DNA from: Actinomycetota bacterium
Lineage (GTDB): Bacteria > Actinomycetota > Thermoleophilia > Gaiellales > Gaiellaceae
Direction of reading: 5' to 3'
DNA length: 64,000 bases
Assembly: GCA_003139545.1 (NCBI GenBank)
Contig: PLJC01000008.1
Span: 22,874-86,873 of the forward strand
Position numbers and translations under genes: made by a program. The notes below the pieces were generated by a model. It saw only the letters and a list, made by a program, of their open reading frames with translations. It made no database searches and was not told the origin of the DNA. Shown one piece after another: positions 38 through 19,242 of this stretch (within the stretch, counting starts at the first letter, position 1; each line of letters starts with the position of its first letter).

Positions 38-64
38 TCATAAGGTGCGCTGGAACCCAGCCGG

Positions 65-946
65 TCAGCCGCGCTCGCCTGCGCTGAGCGCCGCGCGGAT
101 CGCCTCGTCAAAGGTTGTGCGTTTGACCCCGACGATGTCCCAGATTCGGGCGTCGTGTGCGACGGTCGGGACGCGAAGTCCCTCGACGAGGGGCCGTGCA
201 ACGGCCACGCTGGCGGGTGTGACGAGGTACAGCCACAGCGACGAGAGCCGCGGCGTCAAGAACGGAACCTCGATCAGAAGCGGATGCCTGCCGCGCACGC
301 GTGCGACCCGTTCCATCATCGCCCGGTAGGTCATCACCTCGAGACCACCGACATCGAAGGTCTGATCGTAGGCGACCTCGTTGCCACACACGCCGACGAG
401 GACGGCGAGCACGTCGGCCATCGCAACCGGCTGCGTCTCGACCGACACCCAGCGCGGGCAGATCATGATCGGAAGTCGGTCGACGAGCGCGAGAATCGTT
501 TCGAACGCCACGCTCCCGGCACCGACGATCATCGCGGCCTGCAACGTCGTCACAGGAACCTGGCCCGTCTTGAGAATCGTCGCCGTCTCGGCCCTGCTGC
601 GCAGATGCGGTGAGAGATCAGCCGCTTCGCCGAGCCCGCCGAGATAGACGATCTGTGTCGCGTCGCCCGCCGCCGCGCCGGCCGCGACCGCGGTTGCGGC
701 GGCGCGATCCCGCGCCTCGAAGTCGCCGCTACCGAGCGAGTGCACAAGGTGGTAGACGACCTCGGCCCCGGCGAGTGCGCGGCGCATCGCATTGGCATCG
801 GTCGCATCTGCGGCAATCCACTCGACCCCGTCCTCGACGCTCGCGGCGGGCCCCCGTGCCACACCGACAACCTCATGACGCGCCGAGAGCGCCCGCACGA
901 GCGGCCGCCCGATCGTGCCCGTCGCCCCGACAACGGCAACCCTCAC
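65..946 (-). CDS. NAD(P)-binding SDR/NmrA-like oxidoreductase
   Basis: 294 aa from GTG 946. N-terminal Rossmann motif VAVVGATGTIGRPLV. The listed ORF runs on to 1258, but that extension is Arg-rich and overlaps the upstream gene, so it was trimmed. Confidence 0.75.
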   Translation of the reverse strand: MRVAVVGATGTIGRPLVRALSARHEVVGVARGPAASVEDGVEWIAADATDANAMRRALAGAEVVYHLVHSLGSGDFEARDRAAATAVAAGAAAGDATQIVYLGGLGEAADLSPHLRSRAETATILKTGQVPVTTLQAAMIVGAGSVAFETILALVDRLPIMICPRWVSVETQPVAMADVLAVLVGVCGNEVAYDQTFDVGGLEVMTYRAMMERVARVRGRHPLLIEVPFLTPRLSSLWLYLVTPASVAVARPLVEGLRVPTVAHDARIWDIVGVKRTTFDEAIRAALSAGERG

Positions 947-1359
947 TGAGGCCGCCCATCGCGTGCGACCAGTGCCAGGAATCGCCTGCCGACCAGATCG
1001 TGGGACACAAGCTCGAGCCGCCACAACGGCCCACGCAGCAACGGAGCGAAACCTTCGACCTCGACGGCCACATACACGCCGTTGGCGCGCCACGCGATCG
1101 TCCCGCCCGGCCGGCGCGCCATCAACCCGCCAAGGATCACGCGCCGACCGCCCACGAGCGGACCGAATCGCAGGAAGACCGGCCCAACGCCCAGCAACCG
1201 AACGGCACTTCCCGAGAACCGCACCAGACCGAGCGTCGCCCGCCGAACCGCATCCCAATACAACTGCTCGAGCCGCACGCAGTCGATCACCACGCCGACA
1301 GGCGCACGTTGCGTCGTGTCGACCGTCCCGTCGTCGTGCTCGACGCTAACGCTCTCCAT
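943..1359 (-). CDS. hypothetical protein, translationally coupled to the SDR-like gene
   Basis: 139 aa from ATG 1359 (MESVSVEHDDG...). Its stop overlaps the GTG start of 65..946 (GTGA). No motif recognised. Confidence 0.55.
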   Translation of the reverse strand: MESVSVEHDDGTVDTTQRAPVGVVIDCVRLEQLYWDAVRRATLGLVRFSGSAVRLLGVGPVFLRFGPLVGGRRVILGGLMARRPGGTIAWRANGVYVAVEVEGFAPLLRGPLWRLELVSHDLVGRRFLALVARDGRPQ

Positions 1360-1461
1360 TGCGCGAAAGACGCTACCGCCAGCACACAGCCGAGGGGCTC
1401 GCGCCAATTGGGATCGACGAGCTTCACGCAGTTCTCTCGTGCTTGCGGACGCCATTACGCG

Positions 1462-1479
1462 ATGGAGCATTTATGGAGC
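1462..1479. repeat. tandem ATGGAGC-N4-ATGGAGC motif pair, ~110 nt left of tRNA-derived repeat B
   Basis: ATGGAGC at 1462-1468 and 1473-1479. The same heptamer pair recurs at 1698-1716 and 6909-6927. Confidence 0.6.
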
Positions 1480-1589
1480 CCAGCGGGCGCAACCGGTGGC
1501 AACCGGTCGCAAATTGGAGAGCCTCGAAAACGGCTCAAACAGGCCGATCCGCAACCGGTGGCAACCCACGGCAACCGTTTCGCAGCGCA

Positions 1590-1631
1590 TGGTAAGGAGG
1601 GGGTCGACGGTTCGAGTCCGTCAGAGGGCTT
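1590..1631 (+). repeat. tRNA-derived 42-nt direct repeat, copy B (anticodon loop to 3' end; att-core-like)
   Basis: TGGTAAGGAGGGGGTCGACGGTTCGAGTCCGTCAGAGGGCTT is identical to 6805-6846. It has a T-arm and an acceptor 3' strand, but no matching 5' acceptor strand (GCCCTCT) upstream, so it is not a complete tRNA. Confidence 0.8.
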
Positions 1632-1633
1632 CG

Positions 1634-1660
1634 AAAAGCCCCGCACAGCGGGGCTTTTTT
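1634..1660 (+). terminator. rho-independent terminator directly after tRNA-derived repeat B
   Basis: AGCCCCG-CACAG-CGGGGCT stem-loop followed by a run of six T (TTTTTT). Confidence 0.8.
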
Positions 1661-1697
1661 CTTGGCGCGATTTGCAGAGTTCGCTGGTTGCTCAGTT

Positions 1698-1716
1698 ATG
1701 GAGCACCTTATGGAGC
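1698..1716. repeat. tandem ATGGAGC-N5-ATGGAGC motif pair, ~65 nt right of repeat B
   Basis: ATGGAGC at 1698-1704 and 1710-1716. Confidence 0.6.
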
Positions 1717-1767
1717 TCTCGGATTTCGGCCGCCCCAAGATCGTCTCCAGACGAGACAACACCGGCG

Positions 1768-1791
1768 TGCGCCGGCGTTCGGGAATGTCAC
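1768..1791. repeat. copy 1 of the TGCGCC-NN-CGTTCGGGAATGT motif
   Basis: TGCGCCGGCGTTCGGGAATGTCAC. Compare copies at 2051-2074 and 4147-4170. Confidence 0.7.
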
Positions 1792-2050
1792 GGCTCGGGC
1801 CGACAGAGAGCGTGCCGCCGTAGTGCGGATCGCTTCCGAGGAGGCGAGAGGAACGGTCTTCGCTCCACGTTGCAGTCACCTCGTGAACGAACCCAAATTT
1901 CGCCAGGGAGGTCGATCCGTAGGCCAGGCGTCGGCGTTTCCTCGCTGACGTGCATGTACTGCGCGCCTTCGATGACGTGGCCGTCCGCGTCCTAGAGTGC
2001 AAGCCGATACTTCCGTCCAGCCACTACACCCTAAGGGTACGAGAATGCCC

Positions 2051-2074
2051 TGCGCCAACGTTCGGGAATGTCAC
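2051..2074. repeat. copy 2 of the TGCGCC-NN-CGTTCGGGAATGT motif. Overlaps a possible ECF-type promoter: TGTCACC-N16-CGAC (2069-2095).
   Basis: TGCGCCAACGTTCGGGAATGTCAC. Lies ~250 nt upstream of the ECF sigma gene. Confidence 0.7.
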
Positions 2075-2321
2075 CCGAGGGGCAGGATCAACGACCAGTG
2101 CCGTAGTCGAGGTCGAGGCTGTCTGTTCGACCCGCCCATCCAAGCGTCAAACAGCCCGGGCATTGCCTCGCTGGGAAGACTTGTAGCCAGGCGAGCTAGG
2201 CAGGCAAGCGCTTCGCGCCTGGACGCAATGTCACACTTGAACCTCTTTCGGCGCCTTATCTCCGAGAGGTGTGGAGACGTCGTTCCGCCAGCAGCGGTTG
2301 CATCCCATAGCCGTCGGTCGC

Positions 2322-2831
2322 ATGGTCATGAGCGACGACGATCTCAGGCGCGCTGTCGGAGACCTGTTCACCGGCTGTGAGCGACGCATGGGCAGGTATC
2401 TGGTGCAGATGGTCGGCGACCGGGAACTCGCGGCCGACCTCCTTCAGGACAGCTTCCACGACGCTTTGCGCGCGCGGGCGCAGCTCTCGGGTGTGCGCAA
2501 TCCGGAGGCGTGGCTGTTCGGGATCGCGCGCAACCGGGCGCTGCGCGCGCTACGCAGAAGAGGGCGCTTCGATCGTGCCCTGGGCAGGCTCGCCCGCCGG
2601 CAGTCGCAGAGCGGCGACAGCAGCGAGATTGTCGCGATCCGGGATCTGCTCGCGCGCAGCCTGAGCGTTGAGGATCGGGCGCTCGTGCTGTTGCGCTACC
2701 TGCACGACTTCTCGGCGAGTGAGCTTGCGGAGATGACAGGAATGACGGCGGAGGCGGTGCGCCAGCGCCTCTCCCGGGCGCGCGCCCGCCTGCTCGCTGC
2801 CTCTGAACACGATGAAGGAGCGACGCCATGA
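2322..2831 (+). CDS. ECF-family RNA polymerase sigma-70 factor
   Basis: Region 2 (DLLQDSFHDALR...NPEAWLFGIARNRA) and region 4 (LLRYLHDFSASELAEMTGMTAEAVRQRLSRAR). Start taken at ATG 2322; ATG 2328 is also possible. Confidence 0.85.
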   Translation: MVMSDDDLRRAVGDLFTGCERRMGRYLVQMVGDRELAADLLQDSFHDALRARAQLSGVRNPEAWLFGIARNRALRALRRRGRFDRALGRLARRQSQSGDSSEIVAIRDLLARSLSVEDRALVLLRYLHDFSASELAEMTGMTAEAVRQRLSRARARLLAASEHDEGATP

Positions 2832-4126
2832 TCGTTCTCGACGACGACGCTCGCGTACGCGAGCTGCTCGCACCGCTCAACGACGTCGAGCCTGTCGCAC
2901 GACGGGCCCCGTTTCGCGATCGTGAGCTGCTTGAGCTGTTGGCCGGGGAGGTCGGGGCTTCTAGTGGACTGCGTCGGCGTGGGCGCGCGATGGTTGTGAC
3001 CGTGGCTGCCGCGGTCGCGGCCGCACTGGCGATCATGTTCTGGCCTGCGTCGACGTCGCCGTCGGTTCTGGACAGCGCCCTCGCCGCCATCGGCACGGGA
3101 CAGGTGACCCACGTTGTGTTCGAGGATGATCTTGGCAGCACGCTGCTCGACCTCCGCACCGGTCGACAGACGCCTGCCAGCGGTCGCCTGAGCGTGTGGT
3201 ATGCGCCCGCTCGCGGCCTGTTGATCAGGTCGAGCTTCCTCGGAGTCGACGAAGGATCGACGTTCATCGCCACCAACACGCAGACGCTGGGCGGACGGCC
3301 GCTGCCGAGCGCGGCTGACTTCGTGCGCGGGTATCGCGCTGCCCTTCGCGCACATCGCTTCCACCTCGTCGGGAGTGGCAGCTATCGCGGCACATCGGTC
3401 TTCTGGATCGACGGCACGCCGAGCCTGTTCGGCCGCGCTCCGACGCACCGGATCGTCGAGCGGGTCGCCATCTCGAAGGTGAGCTACAAACCGGTGTTCG
3501 TCCAGCGCCTCGTCGACGGTAAGCCAGCCCAGGGGTCTGGCCAGCACATCCTGTCCATCCAGACCTCCGACTCAGGCCCCGGCGCCCTCGACGGCACCCG
3601 CACGCGCTCGGCGCCCTTCGGCTCCAACATCGGCTACTTCAACGGCGTCGTGCAGTACGAGCCGCTGCCCCTCACCGAGGCTCGCGCGATGCGCCCCACA
3701 CCGCTCATCCCGAGAACGATCAGCGGTCTGCGTCTCAGCGTCATCGCCCGGGCGCCGTACACAACCACCCCCAACTCCAGCCAGGACATTGCCGGCGTCT
3801 TGCTCTACTACGGCACGCCATACAACTCCGGACTTCCAAACGACACCCAGCCCGCATACACCGGCCGCTGGGTGCAGATCATCGAATTCCCACGGGCCAA
3901 CCTCGTCACCCGTTTCTACGCGGGCCACTTCCCGACCGGCGGCAAAGCCGTCATCGACGGGTTCGCCGGAAGCGCCCCAGCCCTCTTCGGCAAGCCTGGC
4001 AGCGCCGGCCAGTTTGGAGACACGATCAACGACCACACCGCCACCCTCACTACGCAGGGCCGCTACTTCTTCATCGACGCCACCACCAGAAGCGACGCAA
4101 TCCAAGCTGCACGAGCAACGCCCTAG
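2828..4126 (+). CDS. membrane-anchored protein, putative anti-sigma factor / sigma-coupled sensor
   Basis: ATGA start/stop overlap with the sigma gene. One TM helix (VVTVAAAVAAALAIMFW) follows a ~55-aa N-terminal segment, then ~350 aa of extracytoplasmic sequence. No ZAS motif seen. Confidence 0.65.
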   Translation: MIVLDDDARVRELLAPLNDVEPVARRAPFRDRELLELLAGEVGASSGLRRRGRAMVVTVAAAVAAALAIMFWPASTSPSVLDSALAAIGTGQVTHVVFEDDLGSTLLDLRTGRQTPASGRLSVWYAPARGLLIRSSFLGVDEGSTFIATNTQTLGGRPLPSAADFVRGYRAALRAHRFHLVGSGSYRGTSVFWIDGTPSLFGRAPTHRIVERVAISKVSYKPVFVQRLVDGKPAQGSGQHILSIQTSDSGPGALDGTRTRSAPFGSNIGYFNGVVQYEPLPLTEARAMRPTPLIPRTISGLRLSVIARAPYTTTPNSSQDIAGVLLYYGTPYNSGLPNDTQPAYTGRWVQIIEFPRANLVTRFYAGHFPTGGKAVIDGFAGSAPALFGKPGSAGQFGDTINDHTATLTTQGRYFFIDATTRSDAIQAARATP

Positions 4127-4146
4127 CACCAAACCGGAAGCTCGCA

Positions 4147-4170
4147 TGCGCCACCGTTCGGGAATGTGCG
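4147..4170. repeat. copy 3 of the TGCGCC-NN-CGTTCGGGAATGT motif
   Basis: TGCGCCACCGTTCGGGAATGTGCG, 21 nt after the stop of 2828..4126. Confidence 0.7.
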
Positions 4171-4474
4171 CCGACGGCGACGCCTAACCTGCACGGATCA
4201 GGCGGACAAGTGCTCGCGCTGTTGCGAGGCGTAGTCCCGCGAATTCGATTCCAGGCTGGCCGTAAAGGCCTTGCGGGAAGAGCGGGTGGTTGATCCGAGC
4301 GGGCGTAGATGTGACCCACCGACGTCGATGTTCAAGTGGTGCTCCGAGTGCAGCTGGGCTCCAAGCTGCGCCGCGGAGCGTTCCAAGAACATCGGGCGTC
4401 GCGGCGTAAGGTGGGCGATATGAGGCAGCGGCAAGTCACGTCCGCGTCCGGCGCAGCCGCTACTGCTTCTCGTC

Positions 4475-4996
4475 ATGTTGGACGCGATCGGCGGCGGCCT
4501 TATCGGGATCGGAGCTCTCCTGCTCCTGAGCACGCTGTGGTGGCCGCCTCCGCCCCTGGAGCTGGTCGGCGACGCGGAGCACCGGCGCACCAAGCGCAAC
4601 AGCGCCGTCGCGACGATCGTCTCAGCTGCATCGACGTTCGCGGGCGCCGTTCTTCTTCTCCTTCGGAGCGGGTTCCTCTGGGCGCTCCTCGGGGTGGGGC
4701 TCGGGCTGCTCGTCTACTACGCGATGCTCGCATCATGGACGCACAGCGAATGGGCGTCCATCAACCGTCAAGTCACGCTGGAACGCAAAGGCGGAGATGG
4801 CCGAATCACGCTGGGAACTGCGAGCCGCATGGGGGCAACAAACGACCCCGCCGCTTCGACGTCAAGCATGGCGATATGGCTGACAAACGACGCCGAATAC
4901 GGTGAGCACGAGGCTCGGGTAGCCGCACGGAACGCTGGGTGGCGGTGGGCGCTCCGCCATCCGCGCGGCGGCGGTTGGGATCGCCGGAACCTGTAA
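4475..4996 (+). CDS. hypothetical membrane protein (3 predicted TM helices)
   Basis: 173 aa with hydrophobic helices GGLIGIGALLLLSTLWW, AVATIVSAASTFAGAVLLLL and FLWALLGVGLGLLVYYAML. No family recognised. Confidence 0.5.
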   Translation: MLDAIGGGLIGIGALLLLSTLWWPPPPLELVGDAEHRRTKRNSAVATIVSAASTFAGAVLLLLRSGFLWALLGVGLGLLVYYAMLASWTHSEWASINRQVTLERKGGDGRITLGTASRMGATNDPAASTSSMAIWLTNDAEYGEHEARVAARNAGWRWALRHPRGGGWDRRNL

Positions 4997-5076
4997 GCGC
5001 CTCAAAGTGTGCATGAGCCCGAGTTGCCGTCGCCCCCAGGCAACGATCCGTCCGCCGCGCGTGCGTTGATGGGCGC

Positions 5077-6258
5077 ATGGCGCGGATCGAGGCGATAGCC
5101 GAACCGAGCCTCCTCGTCTGGGCGCGGGAGCGAGCGGGCTACAGCATCGAGCAGGCTGCGAAGCGGGTGCCGGTGACCCCTGAGCGCCTTGCGGCGTGGG
5201 AGGCCGGTGAGGCCCGTCCCACTGTGAAGCAGCTCCGGAAGCTCGGTGGGATCTACGGGCGGCCGCTCGCGGTCTTCTATCTGCCGGAACCGCCGCGCGG
5301 CCCGCAGCAACCGGTCAGGGATCACCGTCGCATTTGGGGCGAGGAGCCTGAGGGAATCTCGCCGCGGCTCCGCAAGGAGATCGACATCGCCGAGGACCGG
5401 CGCGAACTCGCGCTCGAACTTCTTTCGCTCCAGGGGGAAGAGCCGCCAACGTTTGAGCTTCGAGCGAGCATCGGCGAGAACCCGAACACGGTCGCGGCTC
5501 GCTTCCGCGAGGCGCTCGGCGTCACCCTCGACGAGCAACTCTCCTGGCACGAGCGCTACAACGGCTTCAACGCGTGGCGAGACGCGATCGAAGGAGTCGG
5601 CGCCCTCGTCCTCCAGATGACCGACGTCCCCGTGCTGGAGGCGCGCGGCTTCTCCATCGCCGACAGACCGCTCCCGGCCGTGGTCGCGAACATCAAGGAC
5701 ACACCGCGCGCGCGGTGCTTCACGCTCATGCACGAGCTCGTGCATGTGGCGTTGCACGAGGGAGGTATCTGCACGCTCGACGATGCGGAGCGGGTGGAGG
5801 TGTTCTGCAACCGCATCGCCGGGGCGGTGCTCGTCCCCGCCGAAGCGCTCCGCTCCGATCAGATCGTTTCCGCGCACGGCACCGAGCCGGAGTGGGAAGA
5901 CCGCGAGATCGAAGCGCTCGCGCGTCATTTCAGCGTGAGCCGCGAGGTCGTTCTTCGCCGCTTGCTCATCATCGGTCGGACCGAGCAGGCGTTCTACCAG
6001 CGCAAGCGCGACGAGTACACGGAGCAGTACCGGGAAGCGACGGAACAGCGCAAGCGCGAAGAACAGAAGCCGCGGCCGATCCCCCGCGATCTGATCGCAG
6101 TCGCGCGCTCGGGACGGTTCCTGTCGCTGCTCGTGCTGAACAACTACGAGCAGGGCCGGATCACCGCGAGCGACGTCGCGGACTACCTCGGCATCCGCAT
6201 CAAGCACCTCGGCGCCATCGAGCGGCGCGTCTTCGGAGCGCAGCCGCAGACAGAGTGA
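5077..6258 (+). CDS. XRE-family HTH fused to an ImmA/IrrE (COG2856, M78-like) zinc metallopeptidase domain
   Basis: N-terminal HTH (YSIEQAAKRVPVTPERLAAWEAGEARPTVKQLRKLGGIYG) and an HEXXH site (FTLMHELVHVALHEGG). Confidence 0.85.
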   Translation: MARIEAIAEPSLLVWARERAGYSIEQAAKRVPVTPERLAAWEAGEARPTVKQLRKLGGIYGRPLAVFYLPEPPRGPQQPVRDHRRIWGEEPEGISPRLRKEIDIAEDRRELALELLSLQGEEPPTFELRASIGENPNTVAARFREALGVTLDEQLSWHERYNGFNAWRDAIEGVGALVLQMTDVPVLEARGFSIADRPLPAVVANIKDTPRARCFTLMHELVHVALHEGGICTLDDAERVEVFCNRIAGAVLVPAEALRSDQIVSAHGTEPEWEDREIEALARHFSVSREVVLRRLLIIGRTEQAFYQRKRDEYTEQYREATEQRKREEQKPRPIPRDLIAVARSGRFLSLLVLNNYEQGRITASDVADYLGIRIKHLGAIERRVFGAQPQTE

Positions 6259-6722
6259 ACTACAGCGTCGACACGAGCTCCCTCATCAACGGGTTCCGCA
6301 TCAACTACCCGTATCTGAACTTTCCGCGGCTCTGGAACGAGAACATTCCCTCCCTCGTGGCGTCGGGCGAACTGCGCGCGACCGAGGAGGTGCTCGTCGA
6401 GCTAAAGCAGCAAGACGATGAGCTGATCCAGTGGATTGAGGAGTACAGCGACGAGCTCTTCGTCGAGATCGACGACCCGATCCAGCGCGAGGTGATCGCC
6501 ATCCTGCGCGGCTTTCCGGCGCTCATCCACGCCGGGCGCGGCCGCTCCGGAGCTGACCCGTTCGTGATCGCGCTCGCAAAGCTCCACACGTGCGTGGTCG
6601 TCACCGAGGAGGGACGCGGGTCCGTCAAGCACCCGAAGATCCCGGACGTCTGCGACGCGCTCGGCGTGCCCTGCATCCGCCTCGTCGACATGATCGCTGA
6701 GCAAGGCTGGATCTACGGGTAG
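6255..6722 (+). CDS. DUF4411-like PIN-fold nuclease (putative toxin/effector)
   Basis: 155 aa from GTG 6255 (GTGA overlap with the upstream stop). YSVDTSSLING N-terminus and ADPFVIALA...VVTEE...IPDVC C-terminal pattern, as I recall for DUF4411. Confidence 0.7.
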   Translation: MNYSVDTSSLINGFRINYPYLNFPRLWNENIPSLVASGELRATEEVLVELKQQDDELIQWIEEYSDELFVEIDDPIQREVIAILRGFPALIHAGRGRSGADPFVIALAKLHTCVVVTEEGRGSVKHPKIPDVCDALGVPCIRLVDMIAEQGWIYG

Positions 6723-6804
6723 CCGCGTGGAATGCCTAGATGATCGCTGAACTGGTGGGGTGACTCACCATTTGCGCGAGCGTCCATTGACTCGACGCCC
6801 AATC

Positions 6805-6846
6805 TGGTAAGGAGGGGGTCGACGGTTCGAGTCCGTCAGAGGGCTT
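6805..6846 (+). repeat. tRNA-derived 42-nt direct repeat, copy C (att-core-like)
   Basis: Identical to 1590-1631. No 5' acceptor strand upstream, and no terminator downstream. Confidence 0.8.
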
Positions 6847-6908
6847 GCAACACCCCCTCACGGATTCTCGTTCAGGACACCTTGCTCTTCGTCGCACCTG
6901 CGATGGAT

Positions 6909-6927
6909 GTGGAGCTGTCTATGGAGC
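6909..6927. repeat. tandem GTGGAGC-N5-ATGGAGC motif pair, ~63 nt right of repeat C
   Basis: GTGGAGC at 6909-6915 and ATGGAGC at 6921-6927. The context CTATGGAGCTTTCGCGG resembles CTTATGGAGCTCTCGG at 1708-1723. Confidence 0.55.
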
Positions 6928-6963
6928 TTTCGCGGGCGCGAACGCGCGCCGACTCGCGCGGCG

Positions 6964-7455
6964 TTAGGACGCGCCCGACAGGTGGATGCCTCGCTTCGCC
7001 GCGTCCTGCGTCGCACGCTCTAGCAAACGAAGCGCACGCGCGAAGTCCTCGTGTCCGATCTCGAAGTGGGAGACGCCATGCCCGATCTGAGCTTGAAGAT
7101 CTGGACCGACCGAGGCCAGTGACGGCGCAAGGGACAGGCTTGGCACGCATGCGCCCTTGCGGAGCTCGACCGGTGCGGCGTACGGCCAAAGCCGAGCGAC
7201 CTCGGGGTTCGAGTGCCGGTCGTTGAGTACAGGCGGGTCCAAAGCACGCGACGCACCGAAGATGCACTTGGTGCCGCCGACCGCGTAGTAGATGAACTCG
7301 TCGCCGCGCGAAACATTCGTTGGCGCAGGCCGCGGAGGGAATCGTACTTCGATGTGCATCTCAGGATCCCGATCCCAAGGATCGTCGGCCATCGGCCACT
7401 TGCTTGATCCGAGGAGCTTGACGAAGTAGCTCAGCCCAACCCTCCCTTCAGTCAC
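6964..7455 (-). CDS. hypothetical protein
   Basis: 163 aa with ordinary, non-repetitive composition, unlike the GC-shadow ORFs. Co-directional with the ATPase gene and 330 nt downstream of it. No motif recognised. Confidence 0.6.
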   Translation of the reverse strand: MTEGRVGLSYFVKLLGSSKWPMADDPWDRDPEMHIEVRFPPRPAPTNVSRGDEFIYYAVGGTKCIFGASRALDPPVLNDRHSNPEVARLWPYAAPVELRKGACVPSLSLAPSLASVGPDLQAQIGHGVSHFEIGHEDFARALRLLERATQDAAKRGIHLSGAS

Positions 7456-7784
7456 CGCTGTCCTCGCGACCGTACAACAAGGCCGCGGTCGCGCCTAGGC
7501 GCTCATTGGTCACCACGACATGTCGCGCCCCTCGATCTCTCGTTCGAGCTCCTTCTGTTCTGCGCGGATCGCGACCAGCTTCTTCCGCTCCGGCGGATTT
7601 GCGCTCCGGAGCGCTCCACCACCTCAGATGTCGCGTCTGCGCTGCCTGCCTCTGTACAACATGGTGCGGCCGCTCCTGGGCTTCGCCGATGTCCTGCCGG
7701 CTCATTGTGGCAAGCGGTCTGAGAATCGAGGCAGGCGCTCGTGGGAACGAGCAGGCGCGACTATCACGCGAGTCTCCGCCGCGG

Positions 7785-11282: not shown

Positions 11283-12523
11283 CAGCGATCAGTCCGTTCT
11301 AGAAGCGCGACCGGTAGCGAGCGCGAGACGTCTCCCATCAACTCACGCACTGTCTGTGGGTCGGACGGGTTGAACTCGGCGAGGACGGCCTGCGGCAGTA
11401 CGCGCGTCAACGGTTCGAGGGTTGCGGCGAGCTCGGCAGCGGAGCCGTCTCCATCCATCAGCTCTGCGAGCTCTTGCACGAGCTCACCGATCGCGTCGTC
11501 TCCGGCGGCGAGGTCACGAGGCGCCTGGGTCTCGAGCTTCACCTGCTCGATCCAGACCTGGCTGCTCGCGACGTCTGCAGCGGCACCGATCACCTCGTAG
11601 CGGAGACGCTCTTCATCGCCAGCAAGCTCGTTGTGTGCATCGCTCACACCTCCGATCACGACCCTCGCCGCGATCAGGCGCTCGCCGGCATCACGAACGG
11701 CGCCACGAACTGCCGCCGCGACATGCTCGATCGCCCGATCGCGATCCAAGCACTCGCTCGCGTCGATGTTCAGGACTGCCCAACGCACCGCATCCAACGC
11801 GACGTGCTCGAGAGTCGCGCGACCGTCGTCTCCGATCTCGACGATCACCGCGCCCTTCGGCCCCGCTTCGCGGACACCGCGACCCTGGAGGTTGCCGGGG
11901 AACACGATCAGCGGATCGAGGCTCAAGACCTCTTGGCTGTGAACGTGCCCAAGCCCCCAAAACGCGTAGCCGCGATCGCTGAGTCCTCGAAGAGTGCACG
12001 GCGCGTAGCGCTCGTGACCTGGGCGACCATCCACGCTCGTGTGCAGCAAGCCAACGTTGACGAGGTCCGTAATGGGCGCCGGATAGCCGACGGAGAGATC
12101 GTCGAGTACCGCCGGCGTTGCGTAGCCCTGGCCGTGAACGGCAAGGCCGATCTCCTCGTACGTCGCAGTATCGGGCTTGCGGGTGCCGAGGACGCGCACG
12201 TTGTCAGGAAAGCGCAGCGACCGGGTCAGCTTCGACTCCGCGTCATGGTTTCCAGCGACCATCACAACCGGGATCTCCGCTTCACGCAACCGCGCCATCT
12301 CCGAGACGAAGTGGACACCCGTGCCGTAGTGCTGCCAGTCCCCGTCAAAGATGTCGCCCGCCAGGAGAACGGCGTCAACGGCGCGCTCGATAGCTGAGTC
12401 CACAAGGTTCGAGAGTGCGACGCGCGTTGCCAGTCGAAGCTCGTCAGCCGGAGCGCCGTCGTACGCGACGAGACCTCTCATCGGGCTGTCGACGTGCAGA
12501 TCGGCTGACTGAAGGAGTCTCAT
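11282..12523 (-). CDS. Mre11/SbcD-like calcineurin-fold metallophosphoesterase nuclease (YhaO/SbcF-like)
   Basis: 413 aa with motifs DLHVDS, GDIFDG, GNHD, LLHTSV and GLGHVH in canonical order. Confidence 0.85.
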   Translation of the reverse strand: MRLLQSADLHVDSPMRGLVAYDGAPADELRLATRVALSNLVDSAIERAVDAVLLAGDIFDGDWQHYGTGVHFVSEMARLREAEIPVVMVAGNHDAESKLTRSLRFPDNVRVLGTRKPDTATYEEIGLAVHGQGYATPAVLDDLSVGYPAPITDLVNVGLLHTSVDGRPGHERYAPCTLRGLSDRGYAFWGLGHVHSQEVLSLDPLIVFPGNLQGRGVREAGPKGAVIVEIGDDGRATLEHVALDAVRWAVLNIDASECLDRDRAIEHVAAAVRGAVRDAGERLIAARVVIGGVSDAHNELAGDEERLRYEVIGAAADVASSQVWIEQVKLETQAPRDLAAGDDAIGELVQELAELMDGDGSAAELAATLEPLTRVLPQAVLAEFNPSDPQTVRELMGDVSRSLPVALLERTDR

Positions 12524-12765
12524 GGCGGGCGTCTAAGTAAATACGCCGGGTCGGACGGGCCACCGATGCACGCCACGAACGCCGGGGAGCGGCCCGAGGA
12601 ACGCAGTCTGTGCACGCCTTGCCCCACGGAAGCTGCAATTACGAGTTCGCGGTGTAAGTGCCGCAGTGAGTCCCACAACCCGCCGGCTATACGCGCGCGC
12701 CGGGTGAGGCAGGTCAACAGGTTCGATTCCGGTTCGCAAGAGCCACAGGGGGCGCCAGCGCGGTC

Positions 12766-13335
12766 CTAGGTCAGAAGCTCAAGTCCGCGCAGCAGCTCTA
12801 CAGATCGCGCGACTTGCTCCTCCGAGATGCGCCAACCAAGTTGATTGGCGAGTGCGGGGATCTCTGCGAGCTTCGTGGGCTGATCCTGCTGGCTAACGAT
12901 GAAATGAATCTTCGCCGCCATCGACAAGGTGTTTTGGTCGAAGTCCGGCACCGCCTTGTGGATCGCGTCGACCGTCACCTTGATCATGTCGGCCTGAGCT
13001 CCGTACGTCGCCCGAATCGCAGCTACCTCGCTAACTCCATCGCCCGTGAGCGCGTATGTGTACTTCCGAATGTCTGGGCCTGAGGCGTAGGAAGGAAACC
13101 TCTCCATCGTCTCAGTCACCTTTTCGCCGAGGGCAGTCTGCGCCAACGCATACTCGACGGGTCGACTGTACGGGCCGTAGTAATGCGCCCGATGCCCCAG
13201 ATCGTCGGCAAGGGCAACAGCGACGAAGTAAGCAATCTTCTGGATCGCTGTCCTGCCTTCAACCGTGCCGCCTGCAGCGTCGATCGCCAGCAGAACCGCA
13301 TCTCGCGGTGTCAGGCCTTCTTCAGTGCTTCCCAT
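12766..13335 (-). CDS. Panacea/DUF4065-like (SocA/GepA-type) antitoxin-like protein with a wHTH-like C-terminus
   Basis: 189 aa. GRTAIQKIAYFVAV...YYGPYSRPVEYAL resembles the KLQKLLYF...GP motif of DUF4065. Its start lies 25 nt inside the upstream HD gene. Confidence 0.6.
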   Translation of the reverse strand: MGSTEEGLTPRDAVLLAIDAAGGTVEGRTAIQKIAYFVAVALADDLGHRAHYYGPYSRPVEYALAQTALGEKVTETMERFPSYASGPDIRKYTYALTGDGVSEVAAIRATYGAQADMIKVTVDAIHKAVPDFDQNTLSMAAKIHFIVSQQDQPTKLAEIPALANQLGWRISEEQVARSVELLRGLELLT

Positions 13336-14732
13336 AGCAGCCCTTTCGCTCTCTCATGTGCTTCGTCTTGCGGATCGTCAGACAGAAACGGCGTGTAGAG
13401 ATGCGCGAAGCTGTGTTCCGCGCGACTCTCTTCGTCGAAGATCTCGCTCTCGCTCTCGAATGTGTCAGGTGGTCTGTCCCGGTACTCGAGCATGATGTCG
13501 CCGGAGTTGATCTTGGTTCCGGGGCCCCGATACGTCGGATTGGTCTGACTGTCGACGTAGAGCGCAACGAGATACGGCTCGCATCCCAGCGCCTCGGCTA
13601 TCTCAGCCTCAAGATCCGCAACCCGCGGCTCGAACTTGGTGCGATCAAGAATCTTGTCGTATTGCTGGGCACCGACCGTATGCCGTTCCCGGTGAAGTGG
13701 GATGCTTGCGGTACGTCGGAGAAGATCTCGGCAACGCAACCGATCAGCGAGTTTGAAGGAGATCCGGTCGGAGTTCTGGGAGAGGAGTCGTTCCGTTACT
13801 GACGCGTCTGTTTGAGGCAGGTACCACTCGATGAATTCCGGGGTCACCTTCGGCTTCCCGCCTTCTGCATCAACCGTGTAAGCCTCCGCCGGCACAGCGC
13901 CTTCTTCGATCCCGAATTTCAGCGCGCGCGTAACCATGATGTCGGTGGCGATTCGTGTCTTGTGTCCATAGACCTGGCGATGCATGTGATGACGCGCTAG
14001 CAACAGTGCCTCGACCGCCCAGACGCCATCCTCCTCGAATCCTAGAAACGACTCCGGCTGGTCTCGTCCGATAACCCTCGCGGTGTCGACAATCCGATCT
14101 AGGTCGTAGTGGCCATACTCGACACCTGCGTAACGACTGTCACGTAGGAGGTAGTCCAGCTTGTCTGCGTCCGTTGGACCGCTCACGATGTCCCCCAAGA
14201 AGGTTCGCGGCCCAACCTTCTCGATGAGGAGTGCTGCCTGATCACACGCCTCTTGACCGAGCGCCTCGACCAATCCCGAATCGTTGCGGATCAGGAATGC
14301 CGAGATCGCCTCGTGGCACCCCTTCACTCCGCTCCGATCATCGATGAGGCCCTCCGAAACGTGAGAGAAAGGTCCGTGGCCGATGTCATGGAGAAGCGCA
14401 GCGCCCCGTACCTGCCTGTACTCGGCCTCCGTCACTTCAAGAGTCTTCGCCAGGCGACCCGCGACGTGGCAGACGCCGATCGAGTGCTCAAAGCGGGTGT
14501 GAGTGGCTCCGGGATAGACAAGATCAGTCATCGCGAGCTGCCGGATCCCGCGCAGACGCTGGAAAACATCCGAGTTCACCGCAGCCCACTCAGCCGGCTC
14601 CAGAAAGATCATCCCGTGAATCGGGTCTCGAACGGTCTTGCTCGCCACAGGCTCTGGAGCTTCGCAGACCAGGTTGACGGAAGGAAGCGAAACTTCGATG
14701 AGAGTCTGCGTGGGCATAGGTGGACTGTTCAA
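13311..14732 (-). CDS. SAMHD1/EF1143-type HD-domain dNTP triphosphohydrolase-like protein
   Basis: VRDPIHGMIFL, FQRLRGIRQL, THTRFEHSIGV, LLHDIGHGPFSH and DADKLDYLLRDSRYAGV. The listed start is TTG 14732; ATG 14717 is an alternative. Confidence 0.85.
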   Translation of the reverse strand: MNSPPMPTQTLIEVSLPSVNLVCEAPEPVASKTVRDPIHGMIFLEPAEWAAVNSDVFQRLRGIRQLAMTDLVYPGATHTRFEHSIGVCHVAGRLAKTLEVTEAEYRQVRGAALLHDIGHGPFSHVSEGLIDDRSGVKGCHEAISAFLIRNDSGLVEALGQEACDQAALLIEKVGPRTFLGDIVSGPTDADKLDYLLRDSRYAGVEYGHYDLDRIVDTARVIGRDQPESFLGFEEDGVWAVEALLLARHHMHRQVYGHKTRIATDIMVTRALKFGIEEGAVPAEAYTVDAEGGKPKVTPEFIEWYLPQTDASVTERLLSQNSDRISFKLADRLRCRDLLRRTASIPLHRERHTVGAQQYDKILDRTKFEPRVADLEAEIAEALGCEPYLVALYVDSQTNPTYRGPGTKINSGDIMLEYRDRPPDTFESESEIFDEESRAEHSFAHLYTPFLSDDPQDEAHERAKGLLWEALKKA

Positions 14733-14959
14733 GACGAACGTATGTTCGCATCGGTATCGGACGGCACACTCGTCCTACCGCCTGGTGAGCTTCATCACAG
14801 CTTGCGCCGTCCGGCCCAGCTCGACACCCGGTCGAGCAGGCGTCCCAGCTCGCGCAAAGGTTGGCGCGATCCTGTCCGGCCACCCCAAGGGCGGCCCGGG
14901 GGTCGCCGACATGCTCTCCCCCTGGCAACCCGAACACCGAGCCAACGCGACTGATTCAG

Positions 14960-15026
14960 CGCGGATCCGGAGAGCTATCGGCGGCTCAAACACCGCTCCG
15001 TACCGCCCTCTGGAGCCGGATCCGCG
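14960..15026. repeat. long inverted repeat (11-bp perfect arms CGCGGATCCGG / CCGGATCCGCG, ~45-nt loop) in the divergent HD / methyltransferase intergenic region
   Basis: Arms at 14960-14970 and 15016-15026. Each arm contains GGATCC. There is additional AGAG/CTCT pairing inside the arms. Confidence 0.7.
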
Positions 15027-15090
15027 ATTTCCCGAAACTCGTCGAGCCCTTGAAATCCCTGCAAACACAGGAATAGGCTCACGGACCCCT

Positions 15091-16578
15091 ATGGCACCGA
15101 TCAGCTATCTGGAAACGGGCGTCATCTACTGCGATGAAAACCTGCGACGGCTGTCGCAGTTTCCTTCCGAGAGCATCGACCTGATCTACCTCGACCCTCC
15201 GTTCTTCACGAACCGGACATACGAGGTGATCTGGGGCGATGAGGCCGAAGTGCGGTCGTTCGAGGATCGCTGGGAGGGCGGCATTCAGGTCTACATCGAC
15301 TGGATGCGTGAGCGGATGATCGAGCTTCAGCGCATTCTCAAGCCGACCGGCTCCCTATATCTCCACTGCGATCCCACGGCGAGTCATTACCTCAAGGTAA
15401 TGACCGATGAGGTGTTCGGAAGCCGGGATCGCTTCGTGAACGAGATCATCTGGAAGCGCAGCAGTGCACATAGCGATACCAAGCAGGGCGCAAAGCACTA
15501 CGGCCGGCTGAGCGACACGATCCTCTTCTACGCCAAGAGCCCGAAACGCGCGTGGAATCAGCTGTACACACCCTACGAGCAGGAGTACGTCGACCGGGAC
15601 TACAGGCGAATCGAAGCTGGGACCGGGCGTCGTTACCGGATCGACAACATCCAGGGACCCGGTGGCGCGTCAAAGGGCAACCCCCACTACGAGTTCCTGG
15701 GCGTGTCGCGATATTGGCGCTATAGCCGCGAAAGGATGGAGCAGCTCTACGAGGAGGGCCGGATCATTCAGACGCGACCCGGCGCCGTCCCTCAATACAA
15801 GCGGTATCTCGACGAGATGCCTGGCGTGCCGCTTCAGAACCTTTGGATGGATGTCCCTGTGATCAACAACCGGTCGCGTGAGAAACTCGGCTACCCCACG
15901 CAGAAGCCCGAGGCACTACTTGAGAGGATCATCGCAACGAGTAGCAACCCCGGAGACATCATTCTCGATCCCTTCTGCGGCTGCGGTACGACGATTGCGG
16001 TCGCTGAGCGGCTACAGCGAAACTGGCTCGGCATCGACATCAGCCCGACTGCCGTCGGGCTGATGAAACGGCGGATGGAGAAGCTCGGCGCGTTCAATGT
16101 CCGCCTCGTCGGCATGCCTGTGACCGAAGAGCAGCTCAAGGCGCTCAAGCCCTTCGAATTCCAGAACTGGGTGATCCAAACGCTGCATGGAACCCACGCG
16201 CCGAGGAAGAGCGGCGATATGGGGATCGACGGCTATTCGTTCATGGAGCACGCACCGATCCAGGTCAAGCAATCTGAGCGTGTGGGCCGCAACGTCGTCG
16301 ACAACTTCGAGACGGCCGTACGACGTTCGGGCAAGGACGCGGGAATGATCGTCGCATTCAGTTTCGGCAGAGGCGCGCGGGAGGAAGTAGCTCGCGCAAG
16401 AAGTGAGGGACTGCGGCTCGAGCTTGTCACCGTGAAGCGACTGCTCGATGATCCTTCTGATCTCGTCACACCCGACGCGGCCCAACTGTGGCGGGACATG
16501 CTGCCGCCGCCTCGCGACAAAGCCGCTCGACCTTCGGCCGAAGAGCTCATTTCGAGCGATCTCGCCGTCGCCGTCTAG
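15091..16578 (+). CDS. beta-class N6-adenine/N4-cytosine DNA methyltransferase fused to a C-terminal Mrr-type (PD-(D/E)XK) nuclease domain
   Basis: 495 aa from ATG 15091. Motif IV DPPF precedes motif I ILDPFCGCGTT. The C-terminus carries SGDMGIDGY...IQVKQ, typical of the Mrr catalytic core. Confidence 0.8.
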   Translation: MAPISYLETGVIYCDENLRRLSQFPSESIDLIYLDPPFFTNRTYEVIWGDEAEVRSFEDRWEGGIQVYIDWMRERMIELQRILKPTGSLYLHCDPTASHYLKVMTDEVFGSRDRFVNEIIWKRSSAHSDTKQGAKHYGRLSDTILFYAKSPKRAWNQLYTPYEQEYVDRDYRRIEAGTGRRYRIDNIQGPGGASKGNPHYEFLGVSRYWRYSRERMEQLYEEGRIIQTRPGAVPQYKRYLDEMPGVPLQNLWMDVPVINNRSREKLGYPTQKPEALLERIIATSSNPGDIILDPFCGCGTTIAVAERLQRNWLGIDISPTAVGLMKRRMEKLGAFNVRLVGMPVTEEQLKALKPFEFQNWVIQTLHGTHAPRKSGDMGIDGYSFMEHAPIQVKQSERVGRNVVDNFETAVRRSGKDAGMIVAFSFGRGAREEVARARSEGLRLELVTVKRLLDDPSDLVTPDAAQLWRDMLPPPRDKAARPSAEELISSDLAVAV

Positions 16579-16711
16579 GCGGCCCGACCAAGCGCTCATA
16601 TGCGGCGCTCAACCTTGCAGCCGCAATTCAGCAGCGACAGCAGCGTCTTGGCGGTGTTCTCATTGGCGCCGCTGCAGTTGCGCTAGTCGCGAGTTTCGCT
16701 CGCGGCTAGAT

Positions 16712-17119
16712 TCAGCAGAAGCCGCAGTAGTCGATTTCAACTGTCTTGTAGTTCCCCTGGTCGAAGGTTGAGACCTGGAACCTCGGGCCGTTGGCGTTGA
16801 AGACCTTGATCATTGCGGGGAATACGCTGTTCCAGATGTCGACGGGACTCATGCCGACGATGGTCGTTGCCACGCCTTGCTGATCGGCGGCGACCTGTGC
16901 CTTGTAGGTCTGCTCGAGGTTGAGCGCGGCTGCGACCGCATTCTGCGCGGTCGTGAGCTGGTTGTTGGCGCCGTTGAGCGCCTGGGTCAGCTTGGCGACT
17001 TTCTGAGTGAGCGCCGCGTTCTGGCGCTCGAGCGATGCGATCCTGCCGGACGGGCCGGCGGCTGAGGCCGGCCACGCTCCAACCAGAGCGATAACGGCCA
17101 GTACGACAATCGCTTTCAT
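16712..17119 (-). CDS. small secreted coiled-coil protein
   Basis: 135 aa from ATG 17119 with a GGGAGG RBS. Signal peptide [22 protein letters not shown]-terminal CGFC. Confidence 0.7.
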
Positions 17120-17147
17120 TACGACCTCCCGGCAGTCGAAGAACTCC

Positions 17148-17163
17148 ACACACAACTGTGTGT
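17148..17163. promoter_or_regulatory. palindrome ACACAC-AACT-GTGTGT in the divergent promoter region; candidate XRE operator
   Basis: Perfect 6-4-6 inverted repeat between 16712..17119 (-) and 17198..17431 (+). Confidence 0.4.
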
Positions 17164-17197
17164 AGCACTTGTCTGGGCCTCGTGCCAGCTTCGGGAG

Positions 17198-17431
17198 GTG
17201 GCACCGAGACCCGCCCCACACGTCCGGCTCGGACGGGTCATCCGCCGTCTGCGCGAGGAACGGGGCCTCTCTCAAGAGGAGCTCGCCTACGCGAGTGGCT
17301 TCCACCGCAACTACATCGGGTTCGTCGAACGGGGCGAGCGGAACCCGAGCTGGGACAACGTGATACAGATCGCTGCCACCCTCGGTGTCAGCATCACCGA
17401 GCTCGCCGCCGAGTACGAACGCACGCGGTAG
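17198..17431 (+). CDS. XRE-family HTH transcriptional regulator
   Basis: 77 aa with [40 protein letters not shown]. Confidence 0.8.
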
Positions 17432-17605
17432 GCCTCCCCGCCCGGGCCGCCGAGGGGGTAAGGGGGGTCGAATTAGAAGTTGGCGACCTCTCGAACCCCG
17501 TGCCAACCCCCCGTGCGCGTCCGCGAAATAGGCCTCGTTTTTTCCAACGAGACAAGACAAGTGCTCCGCAGGATTCGCTCCATTTCTGGTCAATTGCCAA
17601 GGAGC

Positions 17606-18100
17606 ATGTCTCGACTCGGGCACAGCGCGAAGTCGACGCCGGCCCAACGCGCCGAGGTTCTGCGTCTGCGCTCTGAAGGACGCACGATCCGCGCGATCGC
17701 GGAAGAGGTGTTCGGCCATGAGCGCCTCCGCGGCCGAGTCGAGCGCATCGTCGCACCCAAGAGGGCTGCCGGATCGGGCTCTGAGTACAAGATGCCGCCG
17801 GGGGTCGAGCTTGAAGATGTTGATTTCGACGCGCTGACCCATCTCGAGCTCCTGCGTCTTCTCATGGACCGAACGCTGCGCTACTGGGCGAAGACCGGTG
17901 AGACACCATCGATGAACGAGCTCTCCAAGCAGCTCGACGTGATGCAGCGGCTTTACAGCATGGAGTCGTATGAGCGGACGCACGAGCTCACGATCGAGCC
18001 CCAGGGCCCGCAGAAAAGCGCGCCGGCGGAAGGCAACGACGCGTTCCCGGAGCTGAAGGGACGCAAGGCCAGAGGTCGAATGACAGACCGCATGCCCTGA
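17606..18100 (+). CDS. hypothetical protein with an N-terminal HTH-like segment
   Basis: 164 aa from ATG 17606, preceded by AAGGAG. N-terminus TPAQRAEVLRLRSEGRTIRAIAEEV. Confidence 0.65.
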   Translation: MSRLGHSAKSTPAQRAEVLRLRSEGRTIRAIAEEVFGHERLRGRVERIVAPKRAAGSGSEYKMPPGVELEDVDFDALTHLELLRLLMDRTLRYWAKTGETPSMNELSKQLDVMQRLYSMESYERTHELTIEPQGPQKSAPAEGNDAFPELKGRKARGRMTDRMP

Positions 18101-18189
18101 GGGGCCGGTAGTCGACGGCGACGGGCGTTCACTCGGGTCGAGGAGGACCGTGGACGCTCGCCGTTCTACTCGATATCACTCCAAATAAC

Positions 18190-19242
18190 TCAGAGATTCG
18201 CCGTCGCCACGAGCTGGAAGCGCGCGGGAAAGACCGCGCGGCCGGCGGCGCGCGCGATGCAGACGACTCCGTCCTCGAGCGGTTGCCGCAGCGCCTCGAG
18301 CGCCGGGCGCTGGAACTCGGCGAGCTCGTCGAGCAGGAGAACGCCCTGGTGCGCAAGGCTCGCCTCGCCGGGACGGATGCCCGGCCCACCGCCGACGATG
18401 GCCGCCGTCGAGGCGCTGTGATGCGGTGCGCGGAACGGCGGCGTATGCAAGAGCGGCTGCTCGGGCGGAAGGAGCCCGGCGACCGAGTGGATGCGCGTGA
18501 CCTCGAGTGCGGCTTCGTCGTCGAGCGGCGGCAGGATGCCCGGCAGGCGACGCGCCAGCATCGTTTTGCCCGTCCCGGGCGGCCCGGCGAGGAGGAGGTT
18601 CTGCCGTCCTGCGGCGGCGATCTCGAGTGCCCGTCGCGCCCGCTCCTGGCCGCGCACCTCGGAGAGGTCGGGGAGCGACACCGCCTCCGGCTCGGCGGGC
18701 GCAGACACGGGCTCGGGCTCGAGCTCGCCCCGCAGGTACGCGACCGCCTCGGCCAGATGAGCGACGGGAATCGGCCGCACGCCGGCGAAGGCCGCCTCCG
18801 GCGCCGACTCGGGCGGGCAGAGCAGGCACTCGATCCCGAGGCGGCGGGCACCCTCGGCGACCGCGAGGACGCCGCCAACGCGGCGCAGGCGGCCGTCGAG
18901 CGCGAGCTCGCCCACGGCCGCGTGCCGGTTCAGCTCAGCCTGCGGGATCTGCCGCGAGGCGGCGAGTATGGCGAGCGCGATCGGCAGGTCGTAGCCGGAG
19001 CCTTCCTTCCGCAGCCCCGCGGGTGCGAGGTTGACGGTGACACGCCCGCGCGGGAAATCGAGCTCGGCGGAGAGGATGCCGCTGCGGACCCGCGTGCGCG
19101 CCTCGGCGCAGGCGCGGTCGGGCAAGCCGACGATGGCGAACGTCGGTAGGCCGTTTTCGTGCACGTCCGCCTCCACCTCGACGCGGCGCGGCTCGAGGCC
19201 GACGAGCGCATGCGTGATCGCGCGTGCAAGCACGCCGACCAC
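18190..19242 (-). pseudogene. comM: comM/yifB (Mg-chelatase-like AAA+ competence protein), 3'-truncated
   Basis: N-terminal Lon-like domain ([26 protein letters not shown]), Walker A GPPGTGKT and Walker [10 protein letters not shown]. It ends at ...FQLVATANL-stop, where homologues continue with NPCPCG and ~150 more residues. An AT-richer sequence follows the stop. Confidence 0.75.

Follow-up and report, generated by a model that had tools for sequence, protein, structure and literature searches.

How a block of accessory DNA could enter a chromosome without a recombinase of its own is the question raised by the locus described here. The window, that is, the whole stretch of 64,000 nucleotides (nt) analysed, corresponds to positions 22874-86873 of contig C9 in a metagenome-assembled genome (MAG) of 2.96 Mb, 39 contigs and 69% GC, and its first 18 kb end inside a truncated comM gene; the source sample, JGI 3300037340 (run SRR7151629), contains this DNA as well. 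The initial annotation placed this block between the 3' end of a tRNA gene and the broken comM and read no recombinase in it. In window positions 1-18190 none was found by six-frame searches for PF00589, by tblastn with the 12 recombinases of the genome or by six-frame hidden Markov models (HMMs) of large serine recombinases (LSRs) and tyrosine integrases, so that this part of the claim stands; the absence does not extend to the insertion itself, since the LSR that would have split comM is encoded on another contig, C36. It is quite probable that window positions 1-18190 are the attL-proximal part of mobile DNA put into comM by this LSR, whose gene is located at the other end of the inserted DNA, and that the tRNA-like repeats of the block are scars of small decayed elements. 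The apparent "island without a recombinase" is in this way resolved into two ordinary mechanisms, and it illustrates a common trap in draft and MAG assemblies, in which the recombinase lies on another contig, at the other end of the insertion. Both phenomena, an LSR-split comM and tRNA-Thr cassette scars, are of known kinds, and the block is an ordinary genomic island.

The break in comM and the serine recombinase

The comM fragment of the window (18190-19230, minus strand) halts at 18190-18192 after 346 of ~484 codons. Pfam recognizes in it, up to the residues ...VATANL, a ChlI domain and positions 1-157 of the 207 of the Mg_chelatase profile, and Mg_chelatase_C is absent, which bears out the initial proposal that the gene loses its 3' third at 18190. 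The sole Mg_chelatase_C match of the genome lies at C36:5214-5372; the genome holds one comM 5' part and one comM 3' part, and the two meet at the same codon. On C36, for which identical JGI and Logan contigs and independent gene calls are available, the gene order is an XRE regulator, a 62-amino-acid (aa) open reading frame (ORF), the LSR, a 140-aa comM C-terminal piece, dprA, DAO and pntB/A. Genus-wide comparisons covered 101 genomes (species representatives, the window genome included), and the comM locus was compared closely with ten relatives. Of 31 relatives searched, 30 gave a comM match, most of them with a reading frame open over ~483-490 aa. In all ten close relatives the window comM DNA (18191 onward) runs directly into the C36 DNA (4952 onward), the two overlapping by ~29 bp; homology to them begins exactly at 18191 and continues beyond 30 kb, and no part of window 1-18190 or of C36:1-4951 is present at their comM loci. 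Judged from these alignments, empty comM sites exist in relatives, because the two comM parts are contiguous in every one of the ten. The empty sites and the full-length comM that the initial annotation had suggested looking for in related genomes were both found, and its proposal of an accessory block withstood the comparison.

The junction alignment is clean and shows no target-site duplication, and the insertion interrupts precisely a target that is uninterrupted in relatives. Read in comM sense, attL (18190-18204, minus strand) is ...GCGACG/GCGAATCTCTG/AGTTATTTGG, or, with its surroundings, ...CAGCTCGTGGCGACG GCGAATCTCTG / AGTTATTTGGAGTG, and attR, on C36, is ...CAAGCGCTTCGCAACG ATGAACCTCTG / CCCGTGCGGCGC; uninterrupted relatives carry ...GCGACGATGAACCTCTGCCCGTGCGG, coding for A-T-M344-N-L-C-P-C-G. 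The TGA stop of the truncated comM (18192-18190) arises at the junction, and recombination took place within the interval 18204-18190. By maximal homology the break would fall at 18191/18190. The reconstructed attP junction joins C36 ...GCTTCGCAACG to window GCGAATCTCTGAGTTATTTGG, and the reconstructed attP holds the perfect inverted repeat TTCGC-AACG-GCGAA. Because of this repeat, and because attL has GCG where all relatives and attR have ATG, it is slightly favoured that the exact crossover dinucleotide would fall in the shared ACG (18204-18202).

The LSR gene (C36:3310-4974) encodes an intact 554-aa protein, full length in comparison with its homologues, with matches to Recombinase (5.8e-17), Resolvase (2.6e-13) and Zn_ribbon_recom (6.2e-8) in Pfam. 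The catalytic residues accompany these recombinase and zinc ribbon domains: in 20 homologues the nucleophile serine, S11, is nearly invariant, and D82, R83, L84 and R86 (the DRLxR motif) are invariant together with G87. Its stop codon (C36:4972-4974), 0-9 nt from the crossover, overlaps the ATG of comM Met344 at the head of the 140-aa piece (ATGA, C36:4971-4974). The same 4-nt overlap is called at every homologous locus, and translation of the ComM C-terminal fragment could be coupled to that of the recombinase. Should the ACG be the crossover site, integration may swap the C-terminus and stop codon of the LSR for host comM sequence, and the enzyme would then gain an integration-dependent form.

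Related recombinases share this arrangement. LSRs at 61-68% identity adjoin a comM fragment of 140-142 aa followed by dprA in GCA_009772125.1 and in metagenome contigs of four further samples, and in a sixth homologue, GCA_975250815.1, the LSR is followed by a 46-aa ORF stub and then by the contig end; the location of the recombinase at the end of the insert, by the att site, is thereby found together with the same target in its relatives. None of the more distant LSRs (<=47% identity, in an alignment-based scan) splits comM, and those retrieved are all from Solirubrobacterales/Thermoleophilia MAGs, which makes the host probably an uncultured high-GC actinobacterium from the same vicinity. Within the 101 genus species representatives the comM-LSR clade occurs in the window genome only, and neither a single-protein related-loci search nor a PDB sequence search with the LSR gave a match. 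The clade was previously unannotated and has a conserved, well-delimited attB inside comM (...GCGACGATGAACCTCTGCCCGTGCGG...), which makes it a candidate site-specific integration tool for high-GC actinobacteria that could be tested as such. In the mechanism proposed, the LSR would have inserted the mobile DNA at the comM codons ...ATM(344)NLCPCG, its own gene coming to lie at the opposite end (attR), on C36, with the orphaned 140-aa comM 3' piece, dprA and the normal downstream genes beyond it.

A magnesium chelatase gene is also the integration target of an LSR in the sr1WO group of Wolbachia prophage WO (PMC9203015). The resemblance concerns layout and target: the LSR stands at one end of the element, a Mg-chelatase/ComM-family gene is split with one part on each side, and attB can be recovered from uninterrupted relatives. 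In contrast to sr1WO, the host here is a high-GC actinobacterium, the relatives of the LSR occur in Solirubrobacterales/Thermoleophilia MAGs, and the element is no phage; its LSR relatives are found on conjugative elements with a type IV secretion system (T4SS), and this copy is without phage or conjugation genes. What is new here is the comM-specific LSR clade in this actinobacterial group, together with the nesting in such islands of cassettes bounded by half-tRNAs.

The tRNA-Thr half-copies and their modules

The start of the window had been taken for the end of a tRNA gene. It proved to be an orphan 3' half, the first of three direct copies (window 1-39, 1588-1646, or 1590-1646 in the repeat search, and 6805-6861) that correspond to positions 31/33-73 of tRNA-Thr(GGT), from the anticodon loop to the 3' end; the half-copies of the window are 41-57 nt long. 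The repeats at 1590 and 6805 were correctly recognized as tRNA-derived, and match the tRNA-Thr(GGT) of the genome at 100% over 41-43 nt; copy 1 matches it at 91%, and the changes in its T-stem are compensatory. A genome-wide tRNA scan located the sole tRNA-Thr(GGT) gene of the genome at C14:38188-38261 and no tRNA-Thr gene on C9. In the 3 kb upstream of the window (C9:19874-23173) ARAGORN found no tRNA, and what precedes copy 1 is a conserved element arm with no tRNA 5' half. There is accordingly no chromosomal tRNA site at the left of the block, and the initial view that a tRNA 3' end had served there as an integration site had to be given up.

At the real tRNA-Thr gene a tyrosine integrase frame (C14:38264-39766, minus strand) begins 3 nt past the tRNA. 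The genome contains 11 half-tRNA-Thr copies, distributed over contigs C9, C14, C24 and C33. In six of them, window copies 1 and 2 among these, the core comes after a conserved P arm of ~130 nt with abundant GGCAAC-type repeats, and several, including window copies 2 and 3, are followed by conserved flanks of ~100 nt. Copy 1 (1-39, plus strand) is orphaned, its P arm of ~130 nt lying just upstream of the window; copy 2 comprises, on the plus strand (1461-1646), a P arm (1461-1587), the core (1588-1630) and the conserved downstream flank; copy 3, also on the plus strand (6805-6960), comprises a core (6805-6845) and its flank of ~100 nt. The core is present in 70 of the 101 genus genomes, in arrays and with up to 8-10 copies per genome, and the array at the real tRNA-Thr includes a segment, C14:52298-53860, with 88.8% identity to window 45-1633, the stretch that holds the first module (M1) and its NmrA-like gene. 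Because the repeats match the 3' half of tRNA-Thr, the real gene lies on C14 and such arrays occur genus-wide, the repeats are, on sequence grounds, attachment (att) scars of a genus-wide family of tRNA-Thr-targeting elements and not the end of a tRNA gene. Recombination sites of the LSR and miniature inverted-repeat transposable elements were also considered for these repeats and were rejected, as the repeats are the 3' half of tRNA-Thr and, at the real gene, delimit elements that carry an integrase.

In the mechanism proposed, the cargo inside the insert would consist of modules parted by the 41-57-nt half-copies, and these would be attachment scars left by small elements whose usual insertion site, served by a tyrosine integrase, is the tRNA-Thr gene. 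The modules of the window would have lost their integrase and resemble cis-mobilizable elements (CIMEs), which may have been, or may still be, moved in trans. The direct repeats are identical to the 3' part of the target tRNA, as in an accretion array; the ends of the array lack an intact tRNA gene, no tRNA-Thr being present on C9, and no functional tyrosine integrase was found inside it, C9 having no PF00589 match. The sole tyrosine integrase trace on C9 is a frameshifted pseudogene fragment (C9:12068-12430, window -10805 to -10443; E 2e-22 by tblastn and 2.9e-10 by HMM), which directly adjoins a ROK regulator gene ~10.5 kb before the start of the window. Decayed tandem islands, one of the two explanations offered initially, therefore describe the left 6.9 kb, with its tRNA-Thr-parted modules and an integrase pseudogene only, but not the comM end, which is the attL of an LSR insertion.

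Tandem accretion at the 3' end of a tRNA or tmRNA gene is exemplified by ICESt1 and its CIMEs in Streptococcus thermophilus. The ssrA-specific islands of Dehalococcoides provide another case of accretion at the 3' end of an RNA gene (PMC3146451). As in these systems, the direct repeats between the modules are the 3' part of an RNA gene, most modules are without a recombinase, and an integrase-bearing member stands beside the real gene, here on C14. Unlike them, the array of the window is joined to no tRNA gene and lies in DNA inserted into comM, and the same cores are found inside a sister integrative and conjugative element (ICE).

This sister ICE (JGI 3300032770, contigs L126/L127) is one of two cases among the LSR relatives in which the LSR terminates a T4SS conjugative element, with a Toprim primase, an NlpC/P60 hydrolase, a VirB4-like ATPase, a coupling protein and a TrwC relaxase. 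Between its coupling-protein module and its helicase/relaxase module it carries an 8.4-kb cassette (L126:12258-20713), which holds an HD/HD_assoc dGTPase-like gene, ThiF, Prok-JAB and several unknown ORFs, with no integrase, and which is a candidate mobile defence cassette. One edge of the cassette is a tRNA-Thr core with its flank (L126:12260-12403), 80.6% identical to window 6805-6941, and the other is a P arm with its core (L126:20541-20713), 79.8% identical to window 1463-1635. If comM does link C9 to C36, the cores point the same way with respect to the LSR here as in the sister ICE, and it is plausible for this reason that the window array is internal cargo of the comM island and not a displaced chromosomal tRNA locus. 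The half-tRNA-Thr scars, with the defence cassettes between them, are not confined to the tRNA gene but are present within mobile islands too, which bears on how defence islands are assembled and exchanged. It may further be speculated, with the doubt appropriate to a tentative idea, that comM-LSR islands and ICEs carry an internal tRNA-Thr(GGT) 3' half as a docking site, integrase-less defence or cargo cassettes, with that core and conserved arms as their boundaries, being shuttled to and from the chromosomal tRNA-Thr array by its tyrosine integrase acting in trans, or, separably, that the LSR has the integration-dependent form mentioned above; the docking-site reading, if true, would describe a nested, two-recombinase platform for cargo exchange.

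Half-copies also delimit a segment elsewhere in the genome. At C24:140900-162724, ~135 nt downstream of a tRNA-Lys, 21.8 kb are bounded by two tRNA-Thr half-copies and contain an IS110-like transposase, without a tRNA-Thr 5' half and without a PF00589 match; this segment looks like another orphan array, possibly at a secondary site.

Extent of the insertion and competing explanations

For the interval between the comM halves, the balance tilts modestly towards a single composite island of ~80 kb. Several findings weigh against an insertion that would run from the LSR on C36 to the window on C9. To the left of the island, C9 carries metabolic genes of ordinary appearance (the ROK regulator, a sugar ABC transporter, glycosidases, a lactonase and an aldehyde dehydrogenase, ALDH), and the same strain's DNA past C9:1, read by contig walking for ~5.5 kb only, completes the ALDH gene and goes on to GT2 and GGDEF genes, the codon bias being close to that of the host; the left-hand metabolic genes might be chromosomal and not island DNA. 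The ends of the insertion are on different contigs, C36 beginning in an IS110-like repeat and C9 inside the ALDH gene, and the physical linkage of the two contigs is therefore something that we infer. Exact metagenome scans under both crossover models did not find attP or an excised form. Moreover, tblastn with the proteins of the sister ICE found no conjugation, relaxase or primase genes in this bin; the relaxase, coupling protein and VirB4-type ATPase of a T4SS ICE are missing within it, the sole trace of an ICE backbone being a 33-aa coupling protein remnant on C24, so that the element does not qualify as an intact ICE, in contrast to its LSR relatives. The LSR-proximal DNA also differs from the ICE of the relatives and is interrupted by the IS110-like repeat.

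The most serious alternative is that the LSR did insert an island into comM but that an inversion or translocation, perhaps through recombination between tRNA-Thr cores or IS110 copies, afterwards divided it, so that the block would be one fragment fused to a decayed tRNA-Thr array and to unrelated chromosomal DNA, with the LSR fragment elsewhere. A rearrangement joining two integration sites, the second of the initial explanations, is not needed to account for the block, and we regard it as unlikely, though as a rival of some weight. Such an event has a precedent in the sr1WO prophages of wRi and wAna Wolbachia, which are rearranged, each fragment keeping a piece of the Mg chelatase gene (PMC9203015), and cores in both orientations on single contigs of relatives, e.g. 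G061, hint at inversions. It would also agree with the leftward course of C9 into a ROK/sugar-ABC/glycosidase operon that occurs in three different contexts in other genomes of the genus, with the continuation of the same strain's DNA into the GT2 and GGDEF genes, and with the JGI contig Ga0310755_0000007 and its ENA counterpart, both of which extend ~33.9 kb beyond C9:1. The DNA left of the junction, however, is itself accessory: C9:9000-12300 is absent from all ten close relatives, the operon is found in 12 of the 101 genus genomes, and for the region past C9:1 the other 100 genomes sampled from the genus yielded no orthologue, weak ~70% paralog matches to its APS-kinase-like gene being the only ones obtained. 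No tRNA gene that could represent an "empty tRNA site" stands beside the ROK operon in relatives, and nothing left of 18191 on C9 has homology in them. The JGI and ENA contigs, for their part, end within ~70 nt of each other, which suggests a repeat, e.g. the insertion sequence (IS) that starts C36. Finally, an intact comM-LSR ICE from elsewhere contains tRNA-Thr cores that have the same direction with respect to its LSR.

The left arm and the contig ends yielded some further observations. In the module upstream of the window (C9:12291-22776, window -10582 to -97) are genes for a UDG-family protein, for Pfam-less proteins of 756, 586 and 449 aa, for a 542-aa protein with a weak OLD-like TOPRIM match and for a DUF998 membrane protein, which together look like further defence-type cargo. 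C9:1-2715 (ABC-ATPase, lactonase, ALDH) recurs at 94% nucleotide identity, with an identical lactonase protein, in another operon setting, both in the same metagenome and in others (L135, L142), and this sharing is the probable cause of the contig break within the ALDH gene; no contig end of the bin carries the C-terminus of the ALDH, and an exact metagenome scan with the C9 5' end gave no match. The IS110-like repeat breaks several contigs (C36:1-162, C3:72-233, C28:11684-11850 and the 3' end of C23), and Ga0310755_0000099, the JGI counterpart of C36, starts in the same repeat.

An assembly or binning artefact, in which C9 would be chimeric at the repeated cores or C9 and C36 would stem from different strains, is very improbable. 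The 39-contig MAG comes from a community with many related species, one Logan contig breaks exactly at cores 2 and 3, and C9:1-2715 is shared with another context in the same sample. Against this, the assemblies of ENA and JGI both contain C9:8008-39131 at 100% identity, within contigs of 272 kb and 407 kb, and a Logan contig also reproduces the junction from the ROK gene to the integrase remnant at the island edge; the cores are only 41-57 nt long, copy 1 differs from the others, and comM is represented by exactly one 5' part and one 3' part, which join at the same codon.

The comM gene is a known target of Tn7-like transposons in Acinetobacter, and the AbaR/Tn6019-type resistance islands in A. 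baumannii comM, which carry tns genes and a 5-bp duplication, resemble the present locus in that a large accessory island interrupts comM. In contrast to these, a serine recombinase, the lack of a duplication and a cargo of defence and metabolic genes characterize the locus described here. That comM was hit by such a transposon, or by a tyrosine-integrase element, with the LSR an unrelated neighbour, can be set aside as the least credible explanation, since Pfam detects no Tns (tnsABC(D)) or DDE genes in the block ORFs, the junction alignment shows no 5-bp or other target-site duplication, the LSR stop codon adjoins the crossover, and four further LSR homologues, from other samples and genomes, sit at the identical comM position.

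Cargo of the block and its surroundings

The composition of the block sets it apart from the core: its GC content is 0.648 vs 0.703 in the rest of the window, within the lowest 6.5% of the 18-kb windows of the genome, its tetranucleotide distance is 0.209 vs a mean of 0.107, and GC at third codon positions is 0.66-0.82 vs 0.85-0.92 in neighbouring core genes. The initial cargo calls, a toxin-antitoxin-like pair, an SbcCD-like pair, an HD dNTPase, a methyltransferase-nuclease fusion and XRE regulators, were upheld by domain assignments. Module M1 carries an NAD(P)-binding/NmrA-like gene (65-1258, minus strand). In the second module (M2, 1647-6804), a plus-strand operon (2271-4126) encodes an extracytoplasmic function (ECF) sigma factor (2271-2831) and a 432-aa partner, presumed to be an anti-sigma factor, and is followed on the same strand by an XRE-HTH/M78 peptidase (RmrA-like) translationally coupled to a DUF4411 protein (5077-6722), a Rosmer-like toxin-antitoxin or defence pair. 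The 11.3 kb next to attL hold an SbcCD-like pair made of an AAA_27/SMC-like ATPase (1165 aa) and a metallophosphoesterase (413 aa) (7785-12523, minus strand), an HD/HD_assoc dNTPase-like protein of 473 aa that overlaps a 189-aa partner (12766-14732, minus strand), a fusion of an N6/N4 DNA methyltransferase (N6_N4) with an Mrr-type nuclease (14638-16578, plus strand), and an orphan 423-aa protein with no assigned function (16712-17983, minus strand), found in the window genome only among the 101 genus genomes. Resistance-gene domains were not detected by Pfam or PADLOC in the ORFs scanned, no resistance-gene database having been searched.

A motif of ~24-31 nt (TGCGCC..CGTTCGGGAATGT..) occurs three times around the ECF sigma operon (1768-1798, 2051-2081 and 4147-4177) and could be an ECF-type promoter or operator; it resembles the terminal sequence of the IS110-like repeat (..CAGGAATGTCCCC). 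To the right of the block, the housekeeping synteny that had been noted from 19.2 kb onward holds except for one variable gene, directly upstream of comM (19266-20648), which encodes a 460-aa methyltransferase (MTS + DUF7059) that is present in some relatives (L016, L021) and absent in others. Further into the window, ARAGORN calls an unusually long tRNA-Arg(GCG) of 84 nt at 35296-35379 (minus strand), with the anticodon at position 39, and a normal tRNA-Arg(GCG) of 73 nt is present on C17.

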